Of a stretch of DNA of 64,000 nucleotides, positions 23,895 through 60,642 are shown piece after piece. The stretch comes from an uncultured Rickettsiales bacterium. GTDB taxonomy: Bacteria; Pseudomonadota; Alphaproteobacteria; Rickettsiales; JABDBP01. The notes beneath the pieces are model-generated. The model saw nothing but the letters and a program-made list of their open reading frames with translations, searched no databases and was not told the origin of the DNA. The stretch is taken from positions 904-64,903 of the forward strand of contig CAYVHI010000002.1 in assembly GCA_964450945.1 (NCBI GenBank), in the 5' to 3' direction. The position numbers and the translations under genes are program-made. How positions within the stretch are numbered: the first letter of the stretch is position 1; each line of letters opens with the position of its first letter.

Positions 23895-24716
23895 ATGCTC
23901 TCTTCAGCTATTATTGTATTCCGCGAAGTATTGGAAATTGCACTCATATTGACTGTCATAATGGTTGCAACAAGGCAGTTACGTGAGCGCAATTTACTTG
24001 TCTTGCTTGGTCTTGCTGCTGGCACCATAGGTTCTATTATAATAGCTTTTTTTACTGATACGATTTCAGAATCCTTTGAAGGTTCCGGACAGGAGATATT
24101 CAATGCGGGCATACTTTTCTTTGCCGTACTGGTACTTGGCTGGACAGTTGTGTGGATGAAGAAGCACGGCAGGGAAATCATGCAGCATGCCAAGCATGTT
24201 GGTGAGAAGGTGATGCAGGGCATTATGCCACTTTACAGTGTTTCTGTTGTTATTGCTCTTTCAACACTTCGCGAAGGTGCAGAAATAGTTTTGTTCTCTT
24301 ATGGCCTGCTTGCATCTGGAAAAGAAACGCTTCTTTCAGTTACTATGGGTGGCTTGATAGGTTTTGCCGGTGGCACTGTTATAGGAACATTGTTCTATTT
24401 TGGCATGCTGAGGATTTCACCAAAACATTTATTCGGGGTTACCAGCTGGCTGCTTACCTTCCTTGCGGCAGGAATGGCGGCTCAGGGGGCTGGCTATCTA
24501 ATTGCAGCAGATGTTATCCCGGCGCTTATTGACCCTGTATGGGATACTTCCTGGATCCTGCCAGAAGAAAATATTGTTGGAAAGATTCTGCATTCTTTGA
24601 TTGGTTATACCGATAGGCCTTCTGGCTCACAGCTTATATTTTATGTGGTTACTTTCATTGTCATAGGAACTTTCCTGGTTTATCTTGAAAAAAAATCGGC
24701 CAGGAAGAAACGCTAA
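23895..24716 (+). CDS. FTR1-family high-affinity iron permease
   Basis: 273 aa, seven TMs, two REXXE motifs (REVLE, REGAE). Confidence 0.85.
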   Translation: MLSSAIIVFREVLEIALILTVIMVATRQLRERNLLVLLGLAAGTIGSIIIAFFTDTISESFEGSGQEIFNAGILFFAVLVLGWTVVWMKKHGREIMQHAKHVGEKVMQGIMPLYSVSVVIALSTLREGAEIVLFSYGLLASGKETLLSVTMGGLIGFAGGTVIGTLFYFGMLRISPKHLFGVTSWLLTFLAAGMAAQGAGYLIAADVIPALIDPVWDTSWILPEENIVGKILHSLIGYTDRPSGSQLIFYVVTFIVIGTFLVYLEKKSARKKR

Positions 24717-25885
24717 TACTTCATAATTTTTAGGATATTTAAACTGAAGGCTTTTATTGCCGGGATTAGTGCTGTCATAAGGCCAATCACAAAAGTTATT
24801 AAAACTATATAAAATTCAGCCCAAACAAAAACAAATCCTGAAAATGACAGGTTATAATTATATTCAGTCCATATTCCTATAATATGTACGGCGACATGCG
24901 CCAGTATAAGGCCGGCAGCACAGCCTAAAAAACAAATAATACCGGATTCAATAAAAGGCAACGCAGCAACTTTCAACCTTGAACTGCCAAGCGCGAGCAT
25001 AAGCGCCAGATCGTATCTGCGCTCCTTCAGTAAAAAGCAGAAGGATAAAAAAATGTTAGCAAAAGCAAGCCCAATAAAAAGAAAGGAAACTCCAATTATG
25101 GCATATTTCCACTTTCCAATAATATTCAACAGGTGTTTAGCCTCATTATCGGGATAGACAATTTGAAAATTTGGATTTTTATTAAACTGTGGCTCTATTA
25201 TTGATGATGCTTTGGGAACTAGATATATCAGCATTGCTGCCGTAATTTTCCCATACATTTCTTTATGGATGTTATGAACGGAATCAATGGTTACCAGAAT
25301 AACATCATCAATGGCTGTATTTTTCTTGTTCATTATGCCAATAACGCGGTATGGGAATTCTGCATGCTCTTCCTTGCTTTTACTTAACCCATGTGAACTT
25401 ATAAAACTATCGCCTACCTTGAGGCCAGTTCTCTTTGCCACATTAAATCCTATCAGTGCGGTGTTTAACTTATCAGGGAAATGAGCGGTCTCAACACTGT
25501 AAGACCCAAAACGTATCAGGTAATTTATATTTGTCCCTACTATCCTGAACCCTTCATAGTTATCGCCAAGGATAATAGGGATTACATCAGACAATAGCCC
25601 TTTTGAATTCTGATCAATAATGGCTGCCAGTTCATTTATATCAAAATTTCCTGACGGGATTACTGTATTCAGAACTGTTGATGAAAATATTTGAGCCGGA
25701 TCGCCTTTTGCACCAATTATCAAATCAACACCAGCAATACTCCTTTTCATTCTTTCTTCAAACTGGGAAGAAACAATAAGTATTGAAACGGCTGTAGCGA
25801 TACCAATAGCCATTAGTATAACGCTAATCGCCGTACGATAAGAAGTGTGTAATAAATATTTTGTGCTGAGTTTTAATATGTTCAT
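24713..25885 (-). CDS. ABC transporter permease, FtsX/MacB-like
   Basis: 390 aa. TM1, a large periplasmic domain, and three C-terminal TMs (FtsX fold). Confidence 0.8.
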   Translation of the reverse strand: MNILKLSTKYLLHTSYRTAISVILMAIGIATAVSILIVSSQFEERMKRSIAGVDLIIGAKGDPAQIFSSTVLNTVIPSGNFDINELAAIIDQNSKGLLSDVIPIILGDNYEGFRIVGTNINYLIRFGSYSVETAHFPDKLNTALIGFNVAKRTGLKVGDSFISSHGLSKSKEEHAEFPYRVIGIMNKKNTAIDDVILVTIDSVHNIHKEMYGKITAAMLIYLVPKASSIIEPQFNKNPNFQIVYPDNEAKHLLNIIGKWKYAIIGVSFLFIGLAFANIFLSFCFLLKERRYDLALMLALGSSRLKVAALPFIESGIICFLGCAAGLILAHVAVHIIGIWTEYNYNLSFSGFVFVWAEFYIVLITFVIGLMTALIPAIKAFSLNILKIMKY

Positions 25886-38053: not shown

Positions 38054-38395
38054 ATGGAAAAAAAGCTTATAAAAATATTGACTTTGGCGTTTGCCTTTAT
38101 GCTGGTTGGATGTAGCAATGACCCAAGATCTGCTTTTATTCCGTTTTCAGCTATTGGCCAGACATTTAGTCCAAAGCCGATGTACATGAGAGGGTTACCA
38201 GAAGGGGATGATAGTTACTCAGTAGGTTTCAGAGATGGGTGCGATACTTATCTTGGCATACAGGGGGTTGGTTTGATGCAGTTCAAAACATTTAAACAGG
38301 ATACATTGCGTACGATAAATGATCAGTATTATGCACAAGGTTATGAAGACGGAAGGAACCATTGCACATATATAATGCACCCTGCGGTAAACTAG
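38054..38395 (+). CDS. Small lipoprotein, paralog 1 of 5 (most divergent)
   Basis: Start at MEKKLIK with AAGGA SD. Lipobox LVGC. GFRDGCDT ... YYAQGYEDGRNHC. Confidence 0.7.
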   Translation: MEKKLIKILTLAFAFMLVGCSNDPRSAFIPFSAIGQTFSPKPMYMRGLPEGDDSYSVGFRDGCDTYLGIQGVGLMQFKTFKQDTLRTINDQYYAQGYEDGRNHCTYIMHPAVN

Positions 38396-38401
38396 GTATT
38401 T

Positions 38402-38743
38402 ATGGATAAAACTATGAAAAAAGTAATTACCATATTAAGTATAATTATCATGTCGCTCGGTTTTTCTGCGTGCAGCAGGGATAAGCTTGACCTCGCGCAC
38501 GGAGCCAATTTTAATGTTGATCCCCCACCTGGCCCGCCTGAGTATCAGAAAGGATGGAAAGATGGCTGTGAAACAGGCAGGGCAGCATATGCAAACCATT
38601 TTTATAAAATGTTCCTTGATTTCAGGCAGGATGAAGAATTAGCCCAGAACCCTATATATTATCAGGTATGGAAAGATGCTTACCTATATTGCTGGTTCCA
38701 AACGGAAACTGGATATAACCATGGTTGGGGCAACTTTAGGTAA
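38402..38743 (+). CDS. Small lipoprotein, paralog 2 of 5
   Basis: Lipobox FSAC. PPEYQKGWKDGCETG ... FRQDEELAQNPIYYQVWKDAYLYC. Confidence 0.72.
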   Translation: MDKTMKKVITILSIIIMSLGFSACSRDKLDLAHGANFNVDPPPGPPEYQKGWKDGCETGRAAYANHFYKMFLDFRQDEELAQNPIYYQVWKDAYLYCWFQTETGYNHGWGNFR

Positions 38744-38769
38744 ATTATGCTGAAAACTCTTTTTATTGG

Positions 38770-38862
38770 TAAATACTTTGTCGTTAACATTCTCGAATCC
38801 TCATGTACGTTATTGTACACTGCGGTTCTGCGAGTTTTAACTCCTAGTATTTTCCTAATAAG
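38770..38862. repeat. Hairpin repeat family copy F
   Basis: ..TTTGTCGTTAACATTCTCGAATCCTCATGTAC-gttatt-GTACACTGCGGTTCTGCGAG..ACTCCTAGTA. Lies between paralogs 2 and 3, inside the 5' extension of track ORF 38747. Confidence 0.6.
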
Positions 38863-38893
38863 AAGAGTTTTCAGCTATAATTTACTACTTACA

Positions 38894-39193
38894 ATGATTG
38901 CTGTTTTGCTCCTTTCCGCCTGCACCAGAGCGGGTGCGCCGTGGCAGGCATGGATGTATGAAGGGCCGCCAAAACAGGAAGGAGTTGAGTATCCGCCGCT
39001 TTATGTAGAGGGCTGGAAACATGGTTGTGAGACGGGTGTTGCCTCTACAACCAACCACTATTACAAATTTTTTTATGACTGGCGGCAAGATGCGCAGCTG
39101 GCACAAAATAAAGTTTACTACCAAGGTTGGCGGGATGCTTTCGACTATTGCAACCGCTATATGTTCCAATATTTGGCAAAACCTTTCTTTTAA
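38894..39193 (+). CDS. Small lipoprotein, paralog 3 of 5
   Basis: Start placed at MIAVLLLSAC (lipobox LSAC). YVEGWKHGCETG ... WRQDAQLAQNKVYYQGWRDAFDYC. The ORF stays open upstream to 38747 through the repeat, so the start is uncertain. Confidence 0.65.
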   Translation: MIAVLLLSACTRAGAPWQAWMYEGPPKQEGVEYPPLYVEGWKHGCETGVASTTNHYYKFFYDWRQDAQLAQNKVYYQGWRDAFDYCNRYMFQYLAKPFF

Positions 39194-39201
39194 GAGGATA
39201 T

Positions 39202-39678
39202 ATGAAAAACATAATTATAATATTTAGTTTGTTCATACTAGTAGCCTGTAACACTACAAAAGGTGGCACAGAAAGAACATTTGCCTTCCAGCCGATAACG
39301 TTGCCAAAATTACCGCAAGGCTCGCCTGAATATACACAAGGGTGGAGAGATGGTTGTGAAACCGGTATGTCCGTTTATGGTGACCCGACCTATAAAACAA
39401 TTTATAAATGGAAGCGTGACGAGGATCTTGCTGCATCAAACGTTACTTACTATAAAGCCTGGAAAGATTCATACAATGCTTGCCGCCACTACCTGCAAAG
39501 CTGGTCTTTAAATACCCAGCCAAGCAGCCCGTTCACGCCAATGGATAATCCATCTACTGATCCGCTTTTTGAATCAAAGGATATGAAAAGTGATTTCCTT
39601 GGAATACCAAACGGCGAGAATGCTTTTTCCGGCAGCGGTGACATTTTTTCACCAGAAGGAAACATAATGGGGTTCTAG
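39202..39678 (+). CDS. Small lipoprotein, paralog 4 of 5 (extended Ser/Pro-rich C-terminus)
   Basis: Start at MKNIIIIF with AAGAGGA SD. Lipobox LVAC. SPEYTQGWRDGCETG ... WKRDEDLAASNVTYYKAWKDSYNAC. Confidence 0.72.
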   Translation: MKNIIIIFSLFILVACNTTKGGTERTFAFQPITLPKLPQGSPEYTQGWRDGCETGMSVYGDPTYKTIYKWKRDEDLAASNVTYYKAWKDSYNACRHYLQSWSLNTQPSSPFTPMDNPSTDPLFESKDMKSDFLGIPNGENAFSGSGDIFSPEGNIMGF

Positions 39679-40092
39679 ATGAAAAGAATATTCATCAGTA
39701 TAGCAATTGTTCTTCTCCTTGCTTCATGCAAGCAATCAGGATTTCCGCCTATGTTCAGCCATGGACCGAAGGAAGGGGATGGCCCGCCGGAAATGGTACA
39801 GGGCTGGCAGGATGGCTGCCAGAGCGGTACACAGGCTTACGGCTGGGATATATATAAAACATTCTATCCTTTCAAGCAGGATGCAAGGCTTGTAAGCAAC
39901 AGGCTTTATATGACCTACTGGCGTGATGCTTATAATTATTGCCGCCATTACTTAAACGAATATGGCCGTTACGGTGTGCTTGGCCTTGAGCTTTTTGCGC
40001 AACCGACCGGTGATGGTAACATCCGTGATGAAAGAACTGCTACTGTGGGTAAGGGTGATAATGGTATTATGCCAGGCTTCATGGGTTGGTAG
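39679..40092 (+). CDS. Small lipoprotein, paralog 5 of 5
   Basis: Lipobox LASC. PPEMVQGWQDGCQSG ... FKQDARLVSNRLYMTYWRDAYNYC. The start abuts the stop of paralog 4. Confidence 0.72.
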   Translation: MKRIFISIAIVLLLASCKQSGFPPMFSHGPKEGDGPPEMVQGWQDGCQSGTQAYGWDIYKTFYPFKQDARLVSNRLYMTYWRDAYNYCRHYLNEYGRYGVLGLELFAQPTGDGNIRDERTATVGKGDNGIMPGFMGW

Positions 40093-40114
40093 TATAAACG
40101 ATTATAATTAATTA

Positions 40115-40204
40115 GTTATTACGTCGTCGTACTTCGAACTCAAACTCAGTCATATATGTTTTAGATATACTCCTTCGTTTTCGTCTTGTACTCCTAGTAA
40201 TAAT
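40115..40204. repeat. Hairpin repeat family copy A
   Basis: GTTATTACGTCGTCGTACTTCGAACTC...CATATATGT-tttag-ATATACTCC...TGTACTCCTAGTAATAA. The first 26 nt are near-identical to copy B. Confidence 0.7.
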
Positions 40205-41251: not shown

Positions 41252-42229
41252 ATGCCCAATCTTTCCGATAGAAATCTTGAAATAGCTTCTGAAAGTTCTG
41301 TTTTTTCGAGCGGGCAGAATGATGATCCTAAGGATTCTGGTAGCCAAAAATATTATGCTGCTGCTGAAGTTAAAGGAAACGTAGTGCCGTTAGTGGATGT
41401 AGATACTAGGGAAGTTGTCTATGTAAAAAGAGTAGATAGTAAAGAATTTGCGGCAACAAGTAAGGCTGCAAATTTACCTAAGGGAGATTATAAGCACGTT
41501 GTTTTACCTGAGATAAACGGAACACTTGAAGATTTGAAGCCTGATTTAAAAGACAGAGTAGAAAGCAAGCTAAAGCCTCATGAAGCAGGAGATCAGGGGG
41601 CAACAATTGTGGTTCCATCAGTTCCACAGAAAGGTGTTTATCTTGGTTTTAGTACAACTACGGGGATGTTCATGGAAGCGCTTGATGGGAAAAAAATTAG
41701 TGAGCAGGAACTAAGAGGAGTTGCTGATGATTTATATAGAATGAATGAGGCTGGGGTTTCTCATCGTGATTTGGTTAATAACTCTAGTTTTTCCAGGGAT
41801 GATAGCGGGCAATTGCGCATGCATGTTATAGATTTCGAGCCAGACACTTACGCGGCTGGAATGGAACAACATATAACTGATAAAGCCCACCCAGATGTGG
41901 AGGAGTTTAGTTCTGTAGTTGGTGGTCTGGTAGATGCAGGGGTAACCGATCTAAAACCGGAAGTAGCAGAATCTATGACAAAATTCTCAGTTCCAGATAT
42001 GATTTCGCCTGAACTAAAAGCGGAAATAACAAAAAAAGCTGAAGAAAGGTCAGAAACACCAGCTACTCCGGCCGATAATATGTCTCCTGAGGCATTGAAA
42101 GATTTAAGGGAAGCTGCGGCAGGTATGGCTTCAGCACAAGTAACAAGAGTTGATGAAGGTCAGCCGCCAGGCGGAAATAAAAACACCCCTCAGGTGGAAA
42201 AGGGGAATAAAGAACGTGGCCATGATTAA
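41252..42229 (+). CDS. Protein-kinase-like (minimal HRD/DFx core) protein with disordered termini; candidate secreted effector
   Basis: 325 aa. EVVYVKRV (beta3 Lys-like), GVSHRDLVNN (catalytic-loop-like), HVIDFE (DFG-like). The N- and C-terminal ~40-100 aa are polar, Pro/Glu/Lys-rich and low-complexity. Confidence 0.45.
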   Translation: MPNLSDRNLEIASESSVFSSGQNDDPKDSGSQKYYAAAEVKGNVVPLVDVDTREVVYVKRVDSKEFAATSKAANLPKGDYKHVVLPEINGTLEDLKPDLKDRVESKLKPHEAGDQGATIVVPSVPQKGVYLGFSTTTGMFMEALDGKKISEQELRGVADDLYRMNEAGVSHRDLVNNSSFSRDDSGQLRMHVIDFEPDTYAAGMEQHITDKAHPDVEEFSSVVGGLVDAGVTDLKPEVAESMTKFSVPDMISPELKAEITKKAEERSETPATPADNMSPEALKDLREAAAGMASAQVTRVDEGQPPGGNKNTPQVEKGNKERGHD

Positions 42230-50395: not shown

Positions 50396-52804
50396 ATGAT
50401 GACAAAAACTAATGATGCGAAAAGGGATGGAGTCAGGGTTGATATAAATATTTCTGATTTCATCCCTTTTGCATGTCATTATAACCCTCACACAATACTC
50501 ACAAAGAACGGCGAATTACTACAGACTATAAAAATAGTTGGATTCGCTGCCGAAAATATAAGCAATAAAAAAGAAGATAATAAAAAACGGACCTTAAGAG
50601 GCTCGGTAAGGAAAGCTATTCAGACAGGCATTGATAATGATGAATATGCTATATGGTTTCATACCGTAAGAAGGAAAAAGAAACTTTCTGCCGAAGGCGA
50701 ATACAGCGACCAGTTCTCAAAATATACCAATAGTGCCTGGCGCAAAAGGCATGACTGGGATCATAAATATGTTAACGAGCTTTATATAACTATAATAAGG
50801 GAAGGAGAGTCATTTTCTTTCGAAAGTTATGCCGACTATATAAAAACTTCATCTTATAAGGTGCAAAAAAAGGCAAAGAACCTCTTTCTTGAAAAGATAT
50901 ACGATGAACTTGATGAGGTTGTAAAAAAAGTAGTTCAGTCACTTTCAGATTTTGGTGCAAAACGTCTTTCCATGTTTGAATATAAAGGAGTTTTTTATTC
51001 AGAAAACTTAAGGTTTCTAAGTAAAATCATCAACTTTGCTGAATATAATTTTCCGGTTAAGGAGCAGGATTTATCTCACTATCTTCCTATAAACAAAGTT
51101 TCTTTTGGTTTTAATGCCCTGGAAGTAAAAGGTGCCAATGAAAAACATTTTGCTGGTATATTATCAGTAAAGGAATACCACGAAGTATCGGCAAATGCCA
51201 TAGACACATTCTTGCAGTTGCCGTTTGAATTTATCCTGACAGAAACAGTGGATTTCATTAACAGGGAAAAGGCCTTAAAAGGATTTGAGTATCAAAAGTA
51301 TATTTTAAATCTAAGCCAGGATAAGCATTTTTCTGAAATATCTGGGATAACTGAAATAATAAATAGCGATAAAGGAAGAGTTACGGATTTTGGTGAGCAC
51401 CAGATAAGTATAATGGTTATTGAAGACCATTTGAAATTACTGGAATCAGAAATCAATAAAATGCAGGAAGTTTTAGCCACGTTAGGTATACTTTCGGTAA
51501 GGGAAGATATTATGATGGAAGATTGTTTCTGGGCACAGCTTCCGGGCAACTTCTCATTCATAAGGAGGCTGACACCTATAAATACCAACAGGATGGGTGG
51601 CTTTGCCTCACTTTATAATTTTCCTGCCGGTAAACTTACCAACAACCACTGGGGTCCGGCAGTCACAATTTTTTATACCGCAGCCGGAACGCCTTATTTC
51701 TTCAATTTCCATGTAGATGATAATGGGCATACGGCGATAATCGGACCATTCGGCGCCGGAAAAACGGTGCTAATGAATTTCATGCTCTCAGAAGCAAGAA
51801 AATATAATAGCAAGCTTTTCTTTTTTGACCAGATGCGTGCTTCGGAAATTTTTATCCGCGCTATTGGCGGCAAATATGTTTCTTTTGAAGAAACTAAAAA
51901 TAAGTATTTGCCAATTCCAAAAATGAATCCTCTGTTGCTTGCTGAGAATGAGGAAAATATAAAATTCCTGAAAGCCTGGCTGCAATATCTTGTTTCCAGC
52001 TCTGATAACGGGAATGAAGATGAAACAATAAAAGAAAGGCTGGTGGAAATTGTTAAAATAATATTTGCTCTACCCGCACAGGAGAGGAAACTTTCACAAG
52101 TCAGGGACCTTTTTGAAAAGATGGATATGGCAAAACAGGCGGCGGCTCTTGAGGTCTGGTATGGTTCCGGCAGATATTCATACCTGTTTGATAATGATGA
52201 TGACGACTTGAATATTGCCCATATCCAGGGTTTTGATATGACGTTTTTGGTAAAGGAAGGAAAGCCTCTTGGCCCTGTGCTATCTTATTTATTCCATAGA
52301 ATAAGGGAAAAGCTGGATGGTGAACCAACAATAATAGTACTGGATGAAGCATGGTCACTTATTGATAATGCAATCTTTGCCCCGCACATTTCCGAGTGGC
52401 TTGATTTTTTCCGGGAAAGAAATGCTATGGTTATTTTTGCAACAGAAAGCGTTGAAGATGCAAGTAAAAGCAAAATCACAACTTCAATAACCAGCAAGCT
52501 GGCAACAAGGATATTCCTACCCAATCAGTATGCCACTGGCGCTTATAAAAAGGTTTTCGGCCTTAACCATGTAGAATTTGATCTCCTTAACATGATGAGT
52601 AAGAAGCGCCGCAGCTTCCTCTTAAAGCATGGTGAGGATGCCGTGGTTGCCGAACTTGATCTTAGCGGACTTGATGAAATAATATCTATATTGTCTGGTA
52701 CGCCGGAAAACATTAAGATAATGGAAGGGATTATGAATGAAGTTGGTGAAACCGTTGATAAATGGTTACCTGCCTTTATATTCAAGAAAAAAGCAAAAAA
52801 ATGA
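50396..52804 (+). CDS. virB4: T4SS ATPase VirB4
   Basis: 802 aa. N-terminal SDFIPFACHYNPHTILTKNGELLQT, Walker A GPFGAGKT, Walker B IIVLDEAW. Confidence 0.93.
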   Translation: MMTKTNDAKRDGVRVDINISDFIPFACHYNPHTILTKNGELLQTIKIVGFAAENISNKKEDNKKRTLRGSVRKAIQTGIDNDEYAIWFHTVRRKKKLSAEGEYSDQFSKYTNSAWRKRHDWDHKYVNELYITIIREGESFSFESYADYIKTSSYKVQKKAKNLFLEKIYDELDEVVKKVVQSLSDFGAKRLSMFEYKGVFYSENLRFLSKIINFAEYNFPVKEQDLSHYLPINKVSFGFNALEVKGANEKHFAGILSVKEYHEVSANAIDTFLQLPFEFILTETVDFINREKALKGFEYQKYILNLSQDKHFSEISGITEIINSDKGRVTDFGEHQISIMVIEDHLKLLESEINKMQEVLATLGILSVREDIMMEDCFWAQLPGNFSFIRRLTPINTNRMGGFASLYNFPAGKLTNNHWGPAVTIFYTAAGTPYFFNFHVDDNGHTAIIGPFGAGKTVLMNFMLSEARKYNSKLFFFDQMRASEIFIRAIGGKYVSFEETKNKYLPIPKMNPLLLAENEENIKFLKAWLQYLVSSSDNGNEDETIKERLVEIVKIIFALPAQERKLSQVRDLFEKMDMAKQAAALEVWYGSGRYSYLFDNDDDDLNIAHIQGFDMTFLVKEGKPLGPVLSYLFHRIREKLDGEPTIIVLDEAWSLIDNAIFAPHISEWLDFFRERNAMVIFATESVEDASKSKITTSITSKLATRIFLPNQYATGAYKKVFGLNHVEFDLLNMMSKKRRSFLLKHGEDAVVAELDLSGLDEIISILSGTPENIKIMEGIMNEVGETVDKWLPAFIFKKKAKK

Positions 52805-54324
52805 AAAACCGCAGCGTAAAATTACTTATTCTTTTTCTGGCACTTGCCTGCCCTGCGATAGTTTATGCTGCCTGCACGTTCCCTATTTCACTTAATGACT
52901 GTGCTTTTAGTTTTGTTGACCCGGCAACAGGGGAAACAAAATACCAGATCTTGTTTTCAATACTCTGCCGTGTTCAGTATGCCCTTGGTGGCGCTGTTTT
53001 CCAGATGTATCAGGCGATAGAAACCAGGGTTGCCACGCCGGTCAAGGTTTTCGGTACGCTATATATCATATTTTTTTCCGGTGCTTATTTAATGGGACTT
53101 ATTAAGCAGGAAGCAAAGCTGAGCCAATTCGTAATACACATTGTGAAGCTGACCCTGGTTATGATGTTTGCCACCAACCACTGCTTCTTCTTTGATTATA
53201 TTTACACATTGTTCATGGGCGGCATGAATGCTATAGCCCTTATGGCCTTCAGCGGGCTTCCAGGTACACCGCCTGTACTGGGTGCCGGTTCAAGCCCTGC
53301 GGAAATAATCGCCAGGAGCCAGATAATAGGAAATATTGACGTTGCCTTTAATAGCATTATCAGCATACAGAGCATATTCGCCATTATCGTGCTGATTATT
53401 TTCTTCCTTTTAAGCCCCGGCGGCATAATAATTTCTGTCCTACTTTCAGCCGGCACCATTTATATATTCTATGCCTTTGTGAAGCTGTTCATAACTTTTG
53501 CCATCGCCATCATCAGCCTTACATTTGCGATGATTTTCACCCCGGTTTTCATGATATTTGTTCTATTCGAGCAGACGAGGGATCTTTTCTACAACTGGCT
53601 TTCCCTGCTTTTCACTTATGCCATGCAGCCGATAATCATCCTTTTCTACCTTGTTCTCATGGGCCAGATAATGGATATAAGTTTCATACTTAAGGGGCTT
53701 ACCTGCCCAAGCGCCGCAGACGCTGCTGCTACGGATGCCTGCCTGGCAGCCTTCAGGGCGGATGCCTGTGTTGGCACGCCGGTAGTTCCTGACCCTAACG
53801 CCATAATAGTGCCTTACTGCTGGAAAGTGCTTCCGACATTCATTACATTCTTCCAATGGTCATTCTTTCAAATCAAGCCGGGGATGACCTTTGATACACC
53901 GGTTACTTTCGTTATACCAGGCAACCCGCCACAGAATGTGAACATGCCGGCTTTCGCCGCTATTACCGCGCTTTGTTTCTGCTGGCTGGTGGCCGCATTC
54001 ACCGCCATAGAATTCTGCAAGATAGTGCCTGAACTGGCGCAGCGCCTTGGTACTACGCAGGCCCTTCTGAAACCACCAGGTATTGGCAATATCAGTCCAG
54101 GTGTTAATCCAAAAACTGGTGAGTTTGATAGACTTTCTATCGAAGGTGGTAACGTTATTGTTCCGGGATTTACTGCTGGGTATGCCTCAACAACAAGCGT
54201 CAATCAGTGGCGGGATGCACTTTTAAGTAAATTGGGTGGCGCGTGGCCAAAAATTATAAAAGCAACGGATAGTGGTGCGGCCCGCAAAGGAGTAAGCGAC
54301 ATGATGGACAAGCTGAAGAAATAA
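52801..54324 (+). CDS. virB6: T4SS inner-membrane protein VirB6/TrbL family
   Basis: Start at MKNRSVK (ATGA overlap with the virB4 stop). Signal-like N-terminus and multiple TMs with a central Trp-containing region. The position after virB4 matches Rickettsiales rvh loci. Confidence 0.8.
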   Translation: MKNRSVKLLILFLALACPAIVYAACTFPISLNDCAFSFVDPATGETKYQILFSILCRVQYALGGAVFQMYQAIETRVATPVKVFGTLYIIFFSGAYLMGLIKQEAKLSQFVIHIVKLTLVMMFATNHCFFFDYIYTLFMGGMNAIALMAFSGLPGTPPVLGAGSSPAEIIARSQIIGNIDVAFNSIISIQSIFAIIVLIIFFLLSPGGIIISVLLSAGTIYIFYAFVKLFITFAIAIISLTFAMIFTPVFMIFVLFEQTRDLFYNWLSLLFTYAMQPIIILFYLVLMGQIMDISFILKGLTCPSAADAAATDACLAAFRADACVGTPVVPDPNAIIVPYCWKVLPTFITFFQWSFFQIKPGMTFDTPVTFVIPGNPPQNVNMPAFAAITALCFCWLVAAFTAIEFCKIVPELAQRLGTTQALLKPPGIGNISPGVNPKTGEFDRLSIEGGNVIVPGFTAGYASTTSVNQWRDALLSKLGGAWPKIIKATDSGAARKGVSDMMDKLKK

Positions 54325-60548: not shown

Positions 60549-60551
60549 TTT

Positions 60552-60642
60552 GGTTATTACGTCGTCGTATTTCGGACTCGCTGTGCTCATGTATGTCAGG
60601 ATACACTGCGCCCAGCTCACCTCATACTCCCTAGTACTAACC
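60552..60642. repeat. Hairpin repeat family copy B
   Basis: GGTTATTACGTCGTCGTATTTCGGACTCGCTGTGCTCATGTAT-gtcagg-ATACACTGCGCCCAGCTC..ACTCCCTAGTACTAACC. Lies between tmk and holB. Confidence 0.7.

Follow-up and report, generated by a model that had tools for sequence, protein, structure and literature searches.

Five tandem paralogous lipoproteins in uncultured Rickettsiales-like Alphaproteobacteria: a conserved gene cassette and a candidate envelope complex

Several described groups of small proteins resemble, each in its own way, the genes considered here. YfiL of Escherichia coli is annotated as a lipoprotein of DUF2799 (PF10973); the CHCH proteins are helical hairpins of the mitochondrial intermembrane space, an oxidizing compartment, in which two Cx9C pairs form two disulfides; the pseudopilins GspG-K of the type II secretion system (T2SS) come as a fixed set of paralogs; and the Lpp, Pal, and SlyB/17-kDa-antigen types are small lipoproteins. 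Here, we analyze an array of five tandem genes at positions 38054 to 40092 of a 64,000-nucleotide (nt) stretch of DNA from an uncultured Rickettsiales bacterium (the whole stretch is referred to as the window). As judged from the searches and comparisons described below, the five genes are a new protein family in a conserved five-gene cassette. With slightly better than even confidence, we further posit that this operon of five ancient paralogous lipoproteins encodes the non-redundant subunits of one envelope complex.

A preliminary description of the window, made from its letters alone, had reported five consecutive same-strand open reading frames (ORFs) separated by 6, 150, 8, and 0 nt, each opening with a lipobox. 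The ORF calls and the translated N termini agree with it on every one of these points, and the array is coding. The start of gene 5 directly abuts the stop of gene 4. The genes are as follows.

38054..38395, + strand: gene 1 (orthogroup 1), a lipoprotein of 113 amino acids (aa) from the ORF call, lipobox LVGC
38402..38743, + strand: gene 2 (orthogroup 2), a lipoprotein of 113 aa, lipobox FSAC
38894..39193, + strand: gene 3 (orthogroup 3), 99 aa from the ATG at 38894, lipobox LSAC
39202..39678, + strand: gene 4 (orthogroup 4), a lipoprotein of 158 aa, lipobox LVAC
39679..40092, + strand: gene 5 (orthogroup 5), a lipoprotein of 137 aa, lipobox LASC

The export signal is the most readily recognized part of these proteins. 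By the criterion for bacterial lipoprotein (Sec/SPII) signal peptides, an N-terminal signal peptide closed by a lipobox of the form L-[ASTVI]-[GAS]-C, all five window proteins are predicted lipoproteins; in gene 1, for example, the signal peptide is MEKKLIKILTLAFAFMLVG, followed by the lipid-modified Cys. Across 285 cassette proteins, 259 have a hydrophobic stretch and a Cys upstream of the core (i.e., a lipobox), with L/V/I at -3, S/T/A at -2, and S/A/G at -1, and the Pfam lipid-attachment model LPAM_1 gives weak matches in 8 of 38 family members. Between the lipid Cys and the core lies a Pro-rich linker whose median length is 26 to 35 residues.

Downstream of this linker lies a compact, aromatic-rich core of about 60 residues. 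The preliminary description had read one motif, GWxDGC followed by YYxxW(K/R)DAYxYC, in all five proteins; the pattern holds throughout, whereas the letters do not. That is, four of the proteins carry GWxDGC and YYxxWKDAxxYC (the gene 2 core, for instance, is PPPGPPEYQKGWKDGCETG ... YYQVWKDAYLYC), while gene 1 is the outlier and the most divergent subunit, with GFRDGC in a core that reads GDDSYSVGFRDGC ... YYAQGYEDGRNHC; it lacks both Trp and a C-terminal tail. Gene 1 nevertheless scores 99 bits against the family hidden Markov model (HMM), position-1 genes are mutual best hits in 57 of 57 loci, and its exact sequence is present in public data (P0003). In the five-way alignment, three Cys are invariant, the lipid Cys and two more, together with G, G, G, K, D, Y, and D. 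The two additional Cys, which had been proposed from the window alone, are kept family-wide: among 229 mature sequences, Cys exceeds 80% in three columns. Aromatic residues make up 14 to 24% of the proteins, the upper value being that of gene 3, the most conserved subunit, which ends in ...AKPFF and has an extra N-terminal motif, APWQAWMYEGPP. Orthogroup 3 as a whole conserves the N-terminal sequence GPPWQxWMYEGPP, predicted to form a short helix, and a C-terminal RRxx[LFI].

In both AlphaFold2 models that we obtained, the core consists of two long helices joined by a short helical loop. The gene 2 model has a predicted local distance difference test (pLDDT) score of 83.4, with helices at 46-63, 66-69, and 84-106 and with core blocks at pLDDT 88 to 98, and the gene 3 model has a pLDDT of 81.5, with helices at 16-23, 35-46, 55-58, 67-70, and 73-94. 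The core is also internally repeated. Its N- and C-terminal halves align with each other on Y-x-x-G-W-x-D-G at an hhalign probability of 94.5%, which makes the domain an internal duplication, and the helix motif Y-x-x-G-W-x-D-[GA] is present in both long helices. Read from the sequence, both helices also contain a small-xxx-small-xxx-small pattern (G-W-x-D-G-C-x-x-G and G-W-K-D-A-x-x-Y-C), an arrangement typical of tightly packed helix pairs. Because the two invariant Cys sit one on each long helix, a stapling disulfide is plausible, and on the models this Cys pair probably staples the two helices together. The resulting picture is like the CHCH proteins and other Cys-stabilized alpha-hairpins in its presumed disulfide-stapled, antiparallel helix pair, and the hosts are Alphaproteobacteria of the Rickettsiales type; it is unlike them in having one Cys per helix, a lipid anchor, and no sequence or Foldseek match to solved structures. 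The CHCH resemblance is one of design, not of family.

Searches for a named family or fold returned only negatives, as the preliminary description had anticipated. Pfam and NCBIfam at E <= 10 gave just lipid-attachment-site and signal-peptide noise for the five window proteins, and a scan of 38 family members against the same two libraries gave lipobox and signal-peptide noise likewise and no named family. The family profile, run against all PDB sequences, had TrwH/VirB7 as its sole match, on the signal peptide and with an E value of 0.66. For neither the gene 2 nor the gene 3 model does any Foldseek match in the PDB fall below an E value of 6.8. We also found no description of the five-gene cassette in the literature.

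Among known families, the one that comes closest is DUF2799, a catalogued but uncharacterized lipoprotein domain. Could the family instead be a highly divergent branch of DUF2799 that underwent a clade-specific expansion? This is a question of ancestry, and an affirmative answer would be compatible with a complex of five subunits. YfiL is a small Sec/SPII lipoprotein with a mature length of about 100 aa, and it carries WYDVGMEDAISG and YLKGYAEGQKKTC, in which Y-x-x-G-aromatic-x-[DE]-[GA] occurs twice, the second time with a conserved Cys behind it. When the mature cores are compared by hhalign, the two families align colinearly over 63 columns that include both motifs, with a score of 16.8 versus a maximum of 15.6 in 30 column-shuffled controls. 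The hhalign probability, however, is just 3.9%; with signal peptides included, the signal peptide alone aligns; PF10973 is unmatched at E <= 10 by the five window proteins and by the 38 family members; and the YfiL alignment comprises 58 homologues of low diversity from Enterobacterales only. YfiL also differs in being a single gene in Enterobacterales, in lacking the Cys of GWxDGC (the first family Cys is not conserved) and the GxxxGxxxG pattern, and in carrying an additional C-terminal, Cys-containing segment. We found neither a solved structure nor literature for DUF2799. Membership in DUF2799 strikes us as improbable. The two families may be very distantly related, or they may have converged on a motif for packing helices.

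How widely is the family distributed? A word-indexed search of 5.8 billion proteins yielded 40 homologues, all unnamed and without Pfam domains, and the family profile finds homologues at E values of 1e-20 to 1e-36, so that chance cannot account for the family. When 1.84 billion cluster representatives were searched exhaustively by HMM, 851 proteins were recovered at E <= 1e-3, of which 313 are at E <= 1e-10. At the level of genomes, we count 74 loci in 66 genomes, based on a scan of 185,579 species, each represented by a single genome, and taking in the window and one metagenome contig. All carriers are metagenome-assembled or single-amplified genomes labeled Rickettsiales, Rickettsiaceae, Alphaproteobacteria, or Proteobacteria, except for one labeled Hyphomicrobiales and several lake metagenome-assembled genomes labeled "Rickettsia typhi." The family is restricted to uncultured Rickettsiales-like Alphaproteobacteria.

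The survey of copy number that the preliminary description had called for gives a strikingly uniform answer. Six-frame ORFs from all loci were searched with the family HMM, and almost every locus with enough flanking sequence has its family members in a tandem run of exactly five on the same strand. Where the five are contiguous (57 loci), 283 of 285 genes have their best hit outside their own locus at the same array position. Core identity between orthologues is 41 to 54% in the main cassette type versus 23 to 41% between paralogs within one cassette. Because orthologues are more alike than paralogs, the duplications predate the divergence of the carrier genomes, and there has been no concerted evolution. 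In all five orthogroups the ratio of nonsynonymous to synonymous substitution rates (dN/dS) is 0.17 to 0.22, values that are rough because dS is near saturation (1.3 to 1.8).

These observations bear directly on the interpretation first placed on the array, namely, that it is a diversifying envelope or surface family in accessory-looking surroundings; in the form considered here, it would be a surface-antigen-like set arising from recent tandem duplication. The genes are indeed tandem and on the same strand, their C-terminal tails vary in sequence and length, and a mobile-looking palindrome sits inside the array. Yet copy number and order are fixed across 66 genomes, orthologues are closer than paralogs at the same locus, and a dN/dS near 0.2 is not that of a diversifying family. 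The accessory character that had been read into the surroundings fares no better: the array has a GC content of 0.42, the same as the rest of the window and thus no anomaly, and the flanks consist of housekeeping genes and differ from lineage to lineage. We consider a diversifying array very unlikely. What we see is a conserved, core-like array evolving under purifying selection.

Clustering of concatenated cassettes separates four types. The window belongs to type I, which accounts for 34 loci; 8 loci are of type II, 3 of type III, and 12 of type IV.

Five genomes hold one type I and one type II cassette each (L017 with L032, L038 with L042, L040 with L044, L037 with L050, and L039 with L056). 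The two cassettes of a genome lie on separate contigs or, where they share one, at a great distance from each other, and both members of each pair are colinear. Thus, the unit has been duplicated whole. When classified with type I orthogroup profiles, as types II to IV all were, type II is colinear from G1 to G5 in 38 of 40 genes. Spacing within the cassette is tight; in L005 and L006, most junctions either are 3 to 35 nt long or overlap.

It is this combination (a fixed number, a fixed order, position-specific orthology, duplication of the whole unit, and tight spacing) that leads us to favor non-redundant subunits of one assembly. In the proposed mechanism, each product would be exported and then lipid modified at its lipobox Cys. 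The Pro-rich tether of about 26 to 35 residues would carry the helical domain away from the lipid anchor, and the two motif-bearing helices would be locked by the invariant Cys pair. The five distinct subunits would then form one hetero-oligomer at the periplasmic face of the outer membrane. From there, subunit 5 (and subunit 4 in some lineages) would reach a partner by means of a flexible, Gly/Ser/Trp-rich tail with an aromatic end. Possible partners for these tails, and for the aromatic surfaces of the complex, would include peptidoglycan, lipopolysaccharide, or an outer membrane protein.

The tails themselves are unevenly distributed. C-terminal extensions had been described for genes 4 and 5, and both are present in the window: after its core, gene 4 has a Pro/Ser/Gly-rich tail of about 60 aa ending in ...GNIMGF, and gene 5 has a Gly-rich tail ending in ...PGFMGW. 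Family-wide, however, a long tail is a constant feature of position 5 only, where the median mature length is 158 aa versus about 90 to 100 aa at the other positions; the gene 4 tail occurs in some lineages only. Orthogroup 5 tails are Gly/Ser/Trp-rich, are long in nearly all members, and end in a C-terminal W in 21 of 49. We speculate that the aromatic residue with which subunits 4 and 5 end could serve in docking, as a signal. Two lineage-specific features are worth recording alongside these tails. In type IV, gene 5 has a conserved end, ...GDxRIGxGxW. In a subclade of orthogroup 4 (L034, L035, L037, L038, L040, L045, L048, and L049), an added C-terminal ...LCVLCPNE... contributes two more Cys (C-V-L-C-P), a pair that might form another disulfide or bind a metal; the motif is missing from the window's own gene 4.

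Do the five products need to act together at all? They might be five independent, cotranscribed lipoproteins, each with a separate partner or ligand, such as inhibitors of or receptors for host or competitor enzymes, or with separate glycan specificities. In line with this, the conserved residues differ from orthogroup to orthogroup, as do the additions at the N and C termini, and lineages with genes 1 to 3 only or with an unlinked gene 1 would be tolerable if the products acted separately. But independence does not readily explain why all five genes are kept in order in 57 complete cassettes, why the unit was duplicated whole, or why spacing is so tight as to resemble coupling, and no gene for a partner, toxin, or enzyme recurs in the vicinity. 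We regard independent action as unlikely, although the three-gene and split lineages speak somewhat in its favor.

Those exceptions weigh against a single five-subunit assembly and should be stated together. With type I profiles, type IV cassettes have G1, G2, and G5 at positions 1, 2, and 5 while positions 3 and 4 are ambiguous, and the five genes of type III have no one-to-one mapping onto the five orthogroups. L033 and L047 have genes 1 to 3 only, L054 is rearranged with genes on both strands, and in L061 and L068 gene 1 is split off about 4 kb away and inverted. Rare as they are, these cases demonstrate that certain lineages carry the cassette in shortened or divided form. The cassette of the window may itself be impaired, judging from the disrupted signal-peptide region of gene 3 (see below). 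Finally, none of the window proteins has Asp at +2, and its absence would direct them to the outer membrane, but the +2-residue sorting rule is an E. coli rule and may not be that of this clade.

If the five lipoproteins do form one assembly, what might it do? One possibility is a hitherto undescribed hetero-pentameric, or at least five-subunit, lipoprotein machine of disulfide-stapled hairpins, specific to an environmental Rickettsiales-like clade, that takes over a structural role of the Lpp/Pal type, either spacing the outer membrane from the peptidoglycan or docking outer membrane proteins. We raise this tentatively, as a conjecture that falls well short of an even chance. The family is like the Lpp, Pal, and SlyB/17-kDa-antigen types in its small size, its lipid anchor, and its presumed abundance and periplasm-facing orientation, and the length of the tether would allow reach toward peptidoglycan. 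The differences are nonetheless substantial. Pfam and NCBIfam gave no matches to LPP, OmpA or OmpA-like, or Rick_17kDa_Anti glycine-zipper models; the C termini are hydrophobic or aromatic, whereas that of Lpp is a Lys; and the aromatic-rich core, a putative disulfide hairpin, is like none of these types.

We clustered flanking ORFs across 76 loci and found no conserved partner gene, the top flanking cluster being present in 11 of the 76. The recurrent neighbors are housekeeping genes (nuoL-like, thiL, nusB, MurJ, TauE, YgfZ-like, Alph_Pro_TM, and Usp), with a solitary nuoL-like gene at 11 loci, thiL at 10, and an A24 peptidase at 3. The flanks vary with the lineage: the rib-nusB-thiL context of the window is common only to its closer relatives, while in L005 the cassette follows tolB and in L006 its neighbors are an epimerase gene on one side and purD on the other. 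With no conserved flanks, the cassette is therefore a self-contained, vertically inherited unit. Toxin-immunity arrays of the type VI secretion system or polymorphic toxin kind were considered and rejected, given the housekeeping flanks, among which no cluster is present at more than 11 of the 76 loci; this comparison did not extend to the PADLOC library.

The gene downstream of the window cassette deserves separate mention. It is a genuine A24 prepilin peptidase (A24_N_bact, E = 1e-21), and its co-occurrence with the array had been proposed for survey. A peptidase of this kind directly downstream, together with hydrophobic N termini, raises the question of whether the array is a pseudopilin-like or pilus-associated set, by analogy with GspG-K or minor pilins. 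The analogy has some appeal, as a set of five in fixed order recalls the T2SS pseudopilins, and the likeness extends to co-inheritance and to non-redundant paralogs. Several features contradict it. The N termini are lipoboxes with Cys rather than G|(F/M)xxxE prepilin sites, there are no pilin Pfam matches, the core is a helical hairpin (i.e., a different fold) without the beta-sheet of pilins, and no secretion or pilus genes are linked to the cassette. Because the peptidase is adjacent in just 3 of 76 loci, it is not a partner, and we find a pilus-related role scarcely credible.

Another neighbor is confined to one cassette type. In about nine type IV loci (L066, L070, L075, L078, L079, L081, L061, L067, and L077), a nuoL-like gene of about 650 aa (Proton_antipo_N/M/C) lies directly downstream of gene 5 on the same strand. 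It is solitary, with no nuoM or nuoN after it, and it is not beside type I cassettes such as that of the window. This adjacency may represent either clade synteny or a functional link.

The preliminary description had also placed a repeat element in the 150-nt gap between genes 2 and 3. An element is there, as a palindrome of about 145 nt, but its standing as a repeat is not borne out, since no second copy was found.

38740..38893, strand not assigned: palindromic insertion of about 145 nt, from the gene 2 stop to the gene 3 lipobox region

The palindrome has a predicted RNA fold of -61 kcal/mol (z = -10.5) and a self-complementarity of 75% over 146 nt. An ungapped palindrome scan and an inverted-repeat finder both missed the element, the ungapped scan being blank because the palindrome arms contain indels. 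In a relative (L082) whose gene 3 is 90% identical, the palindrome is absent, the gap between genes 2 and 3 is 2 nt, and the gene 3 signal peptide is intact, MKNIAYIVVLVIALSGC. In the window, by comparison, the palindrome directly follows the ancestral gene 3 ATG at 38747; the frame stays open, but most of the signal-peptide coding sequence has been replaced. The open frame runs from 38747 to 39193, and it is because the palindrome keeps this frame open that NCBI lists a 148-aa gene 3 product. The start codon of gene 3 is accordingly ambiguous, 38747 or 38894: the later start gives MIAVLLLSAC, with no charged n-region and no Shine-Dalgarno sequence. Rickettsia palindromic elements are known to insert in frame into genes, and the window element is like them in this respect. 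It is unlike a repeat family in being unique as far as was searched: neither the window nor 118 related or fetched loci yielded another copy (blastn covered the window and loci L001 to L082), and a metagenome scan gave just 36 single-site matches that look like chance.

Other features of the window fit a moderately reduced Rickettsiales-like organism with a pathway for sorting lipoproteins to the outer membrane. The window encodes homologues of VirB4 and VirB6/TrbL (type IV secretion, 50396-54324), a FliI-type ATPase, HtrA, and, at 24713-25885, a LolC/E-type lipoprotein-release permease. Around the array itself, a promoter and terminator scan gave no signal above shuffled expectation, and the 128-nt region after gene 5 has no significant fold (z = -1.1). 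A 30-nt stretch in the intergenic sequence after gene 5 (40112-40141) is 90% identical to 60550-60579, about 20 kb downstream, and may be a short dispersed repeat. Farther along, an ORF of 325 aa (41252-42229, + strand) follows a tRNA-Met gene; it has an HRDLxN-like motif and a weak Kdo/WaaP kinase-family match (E = 0.006, below the Pfam cutoff) and may be a divergent protein kinase-like gene.

What does the cassette mean for the organisms that carry it? The carriers belong to a poorly known, host-associated group of Rickettsiales-related Alphaproteobacteria, and with 66 of 185,579 species genomes positive, the cassette is a compact marker for this clade. Even without an assembly, the array is a conserved one and not a variable surface family. 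If the proposed assembly is real, it would be a new type of envelope complex, built from five ancient paralogous lipoproteins whose disulfide-hairpin fold is unclassified, and it would provide a rare bacterial example of a paralog assembly of fixed stoichiometry encoded by a colinear cassette.

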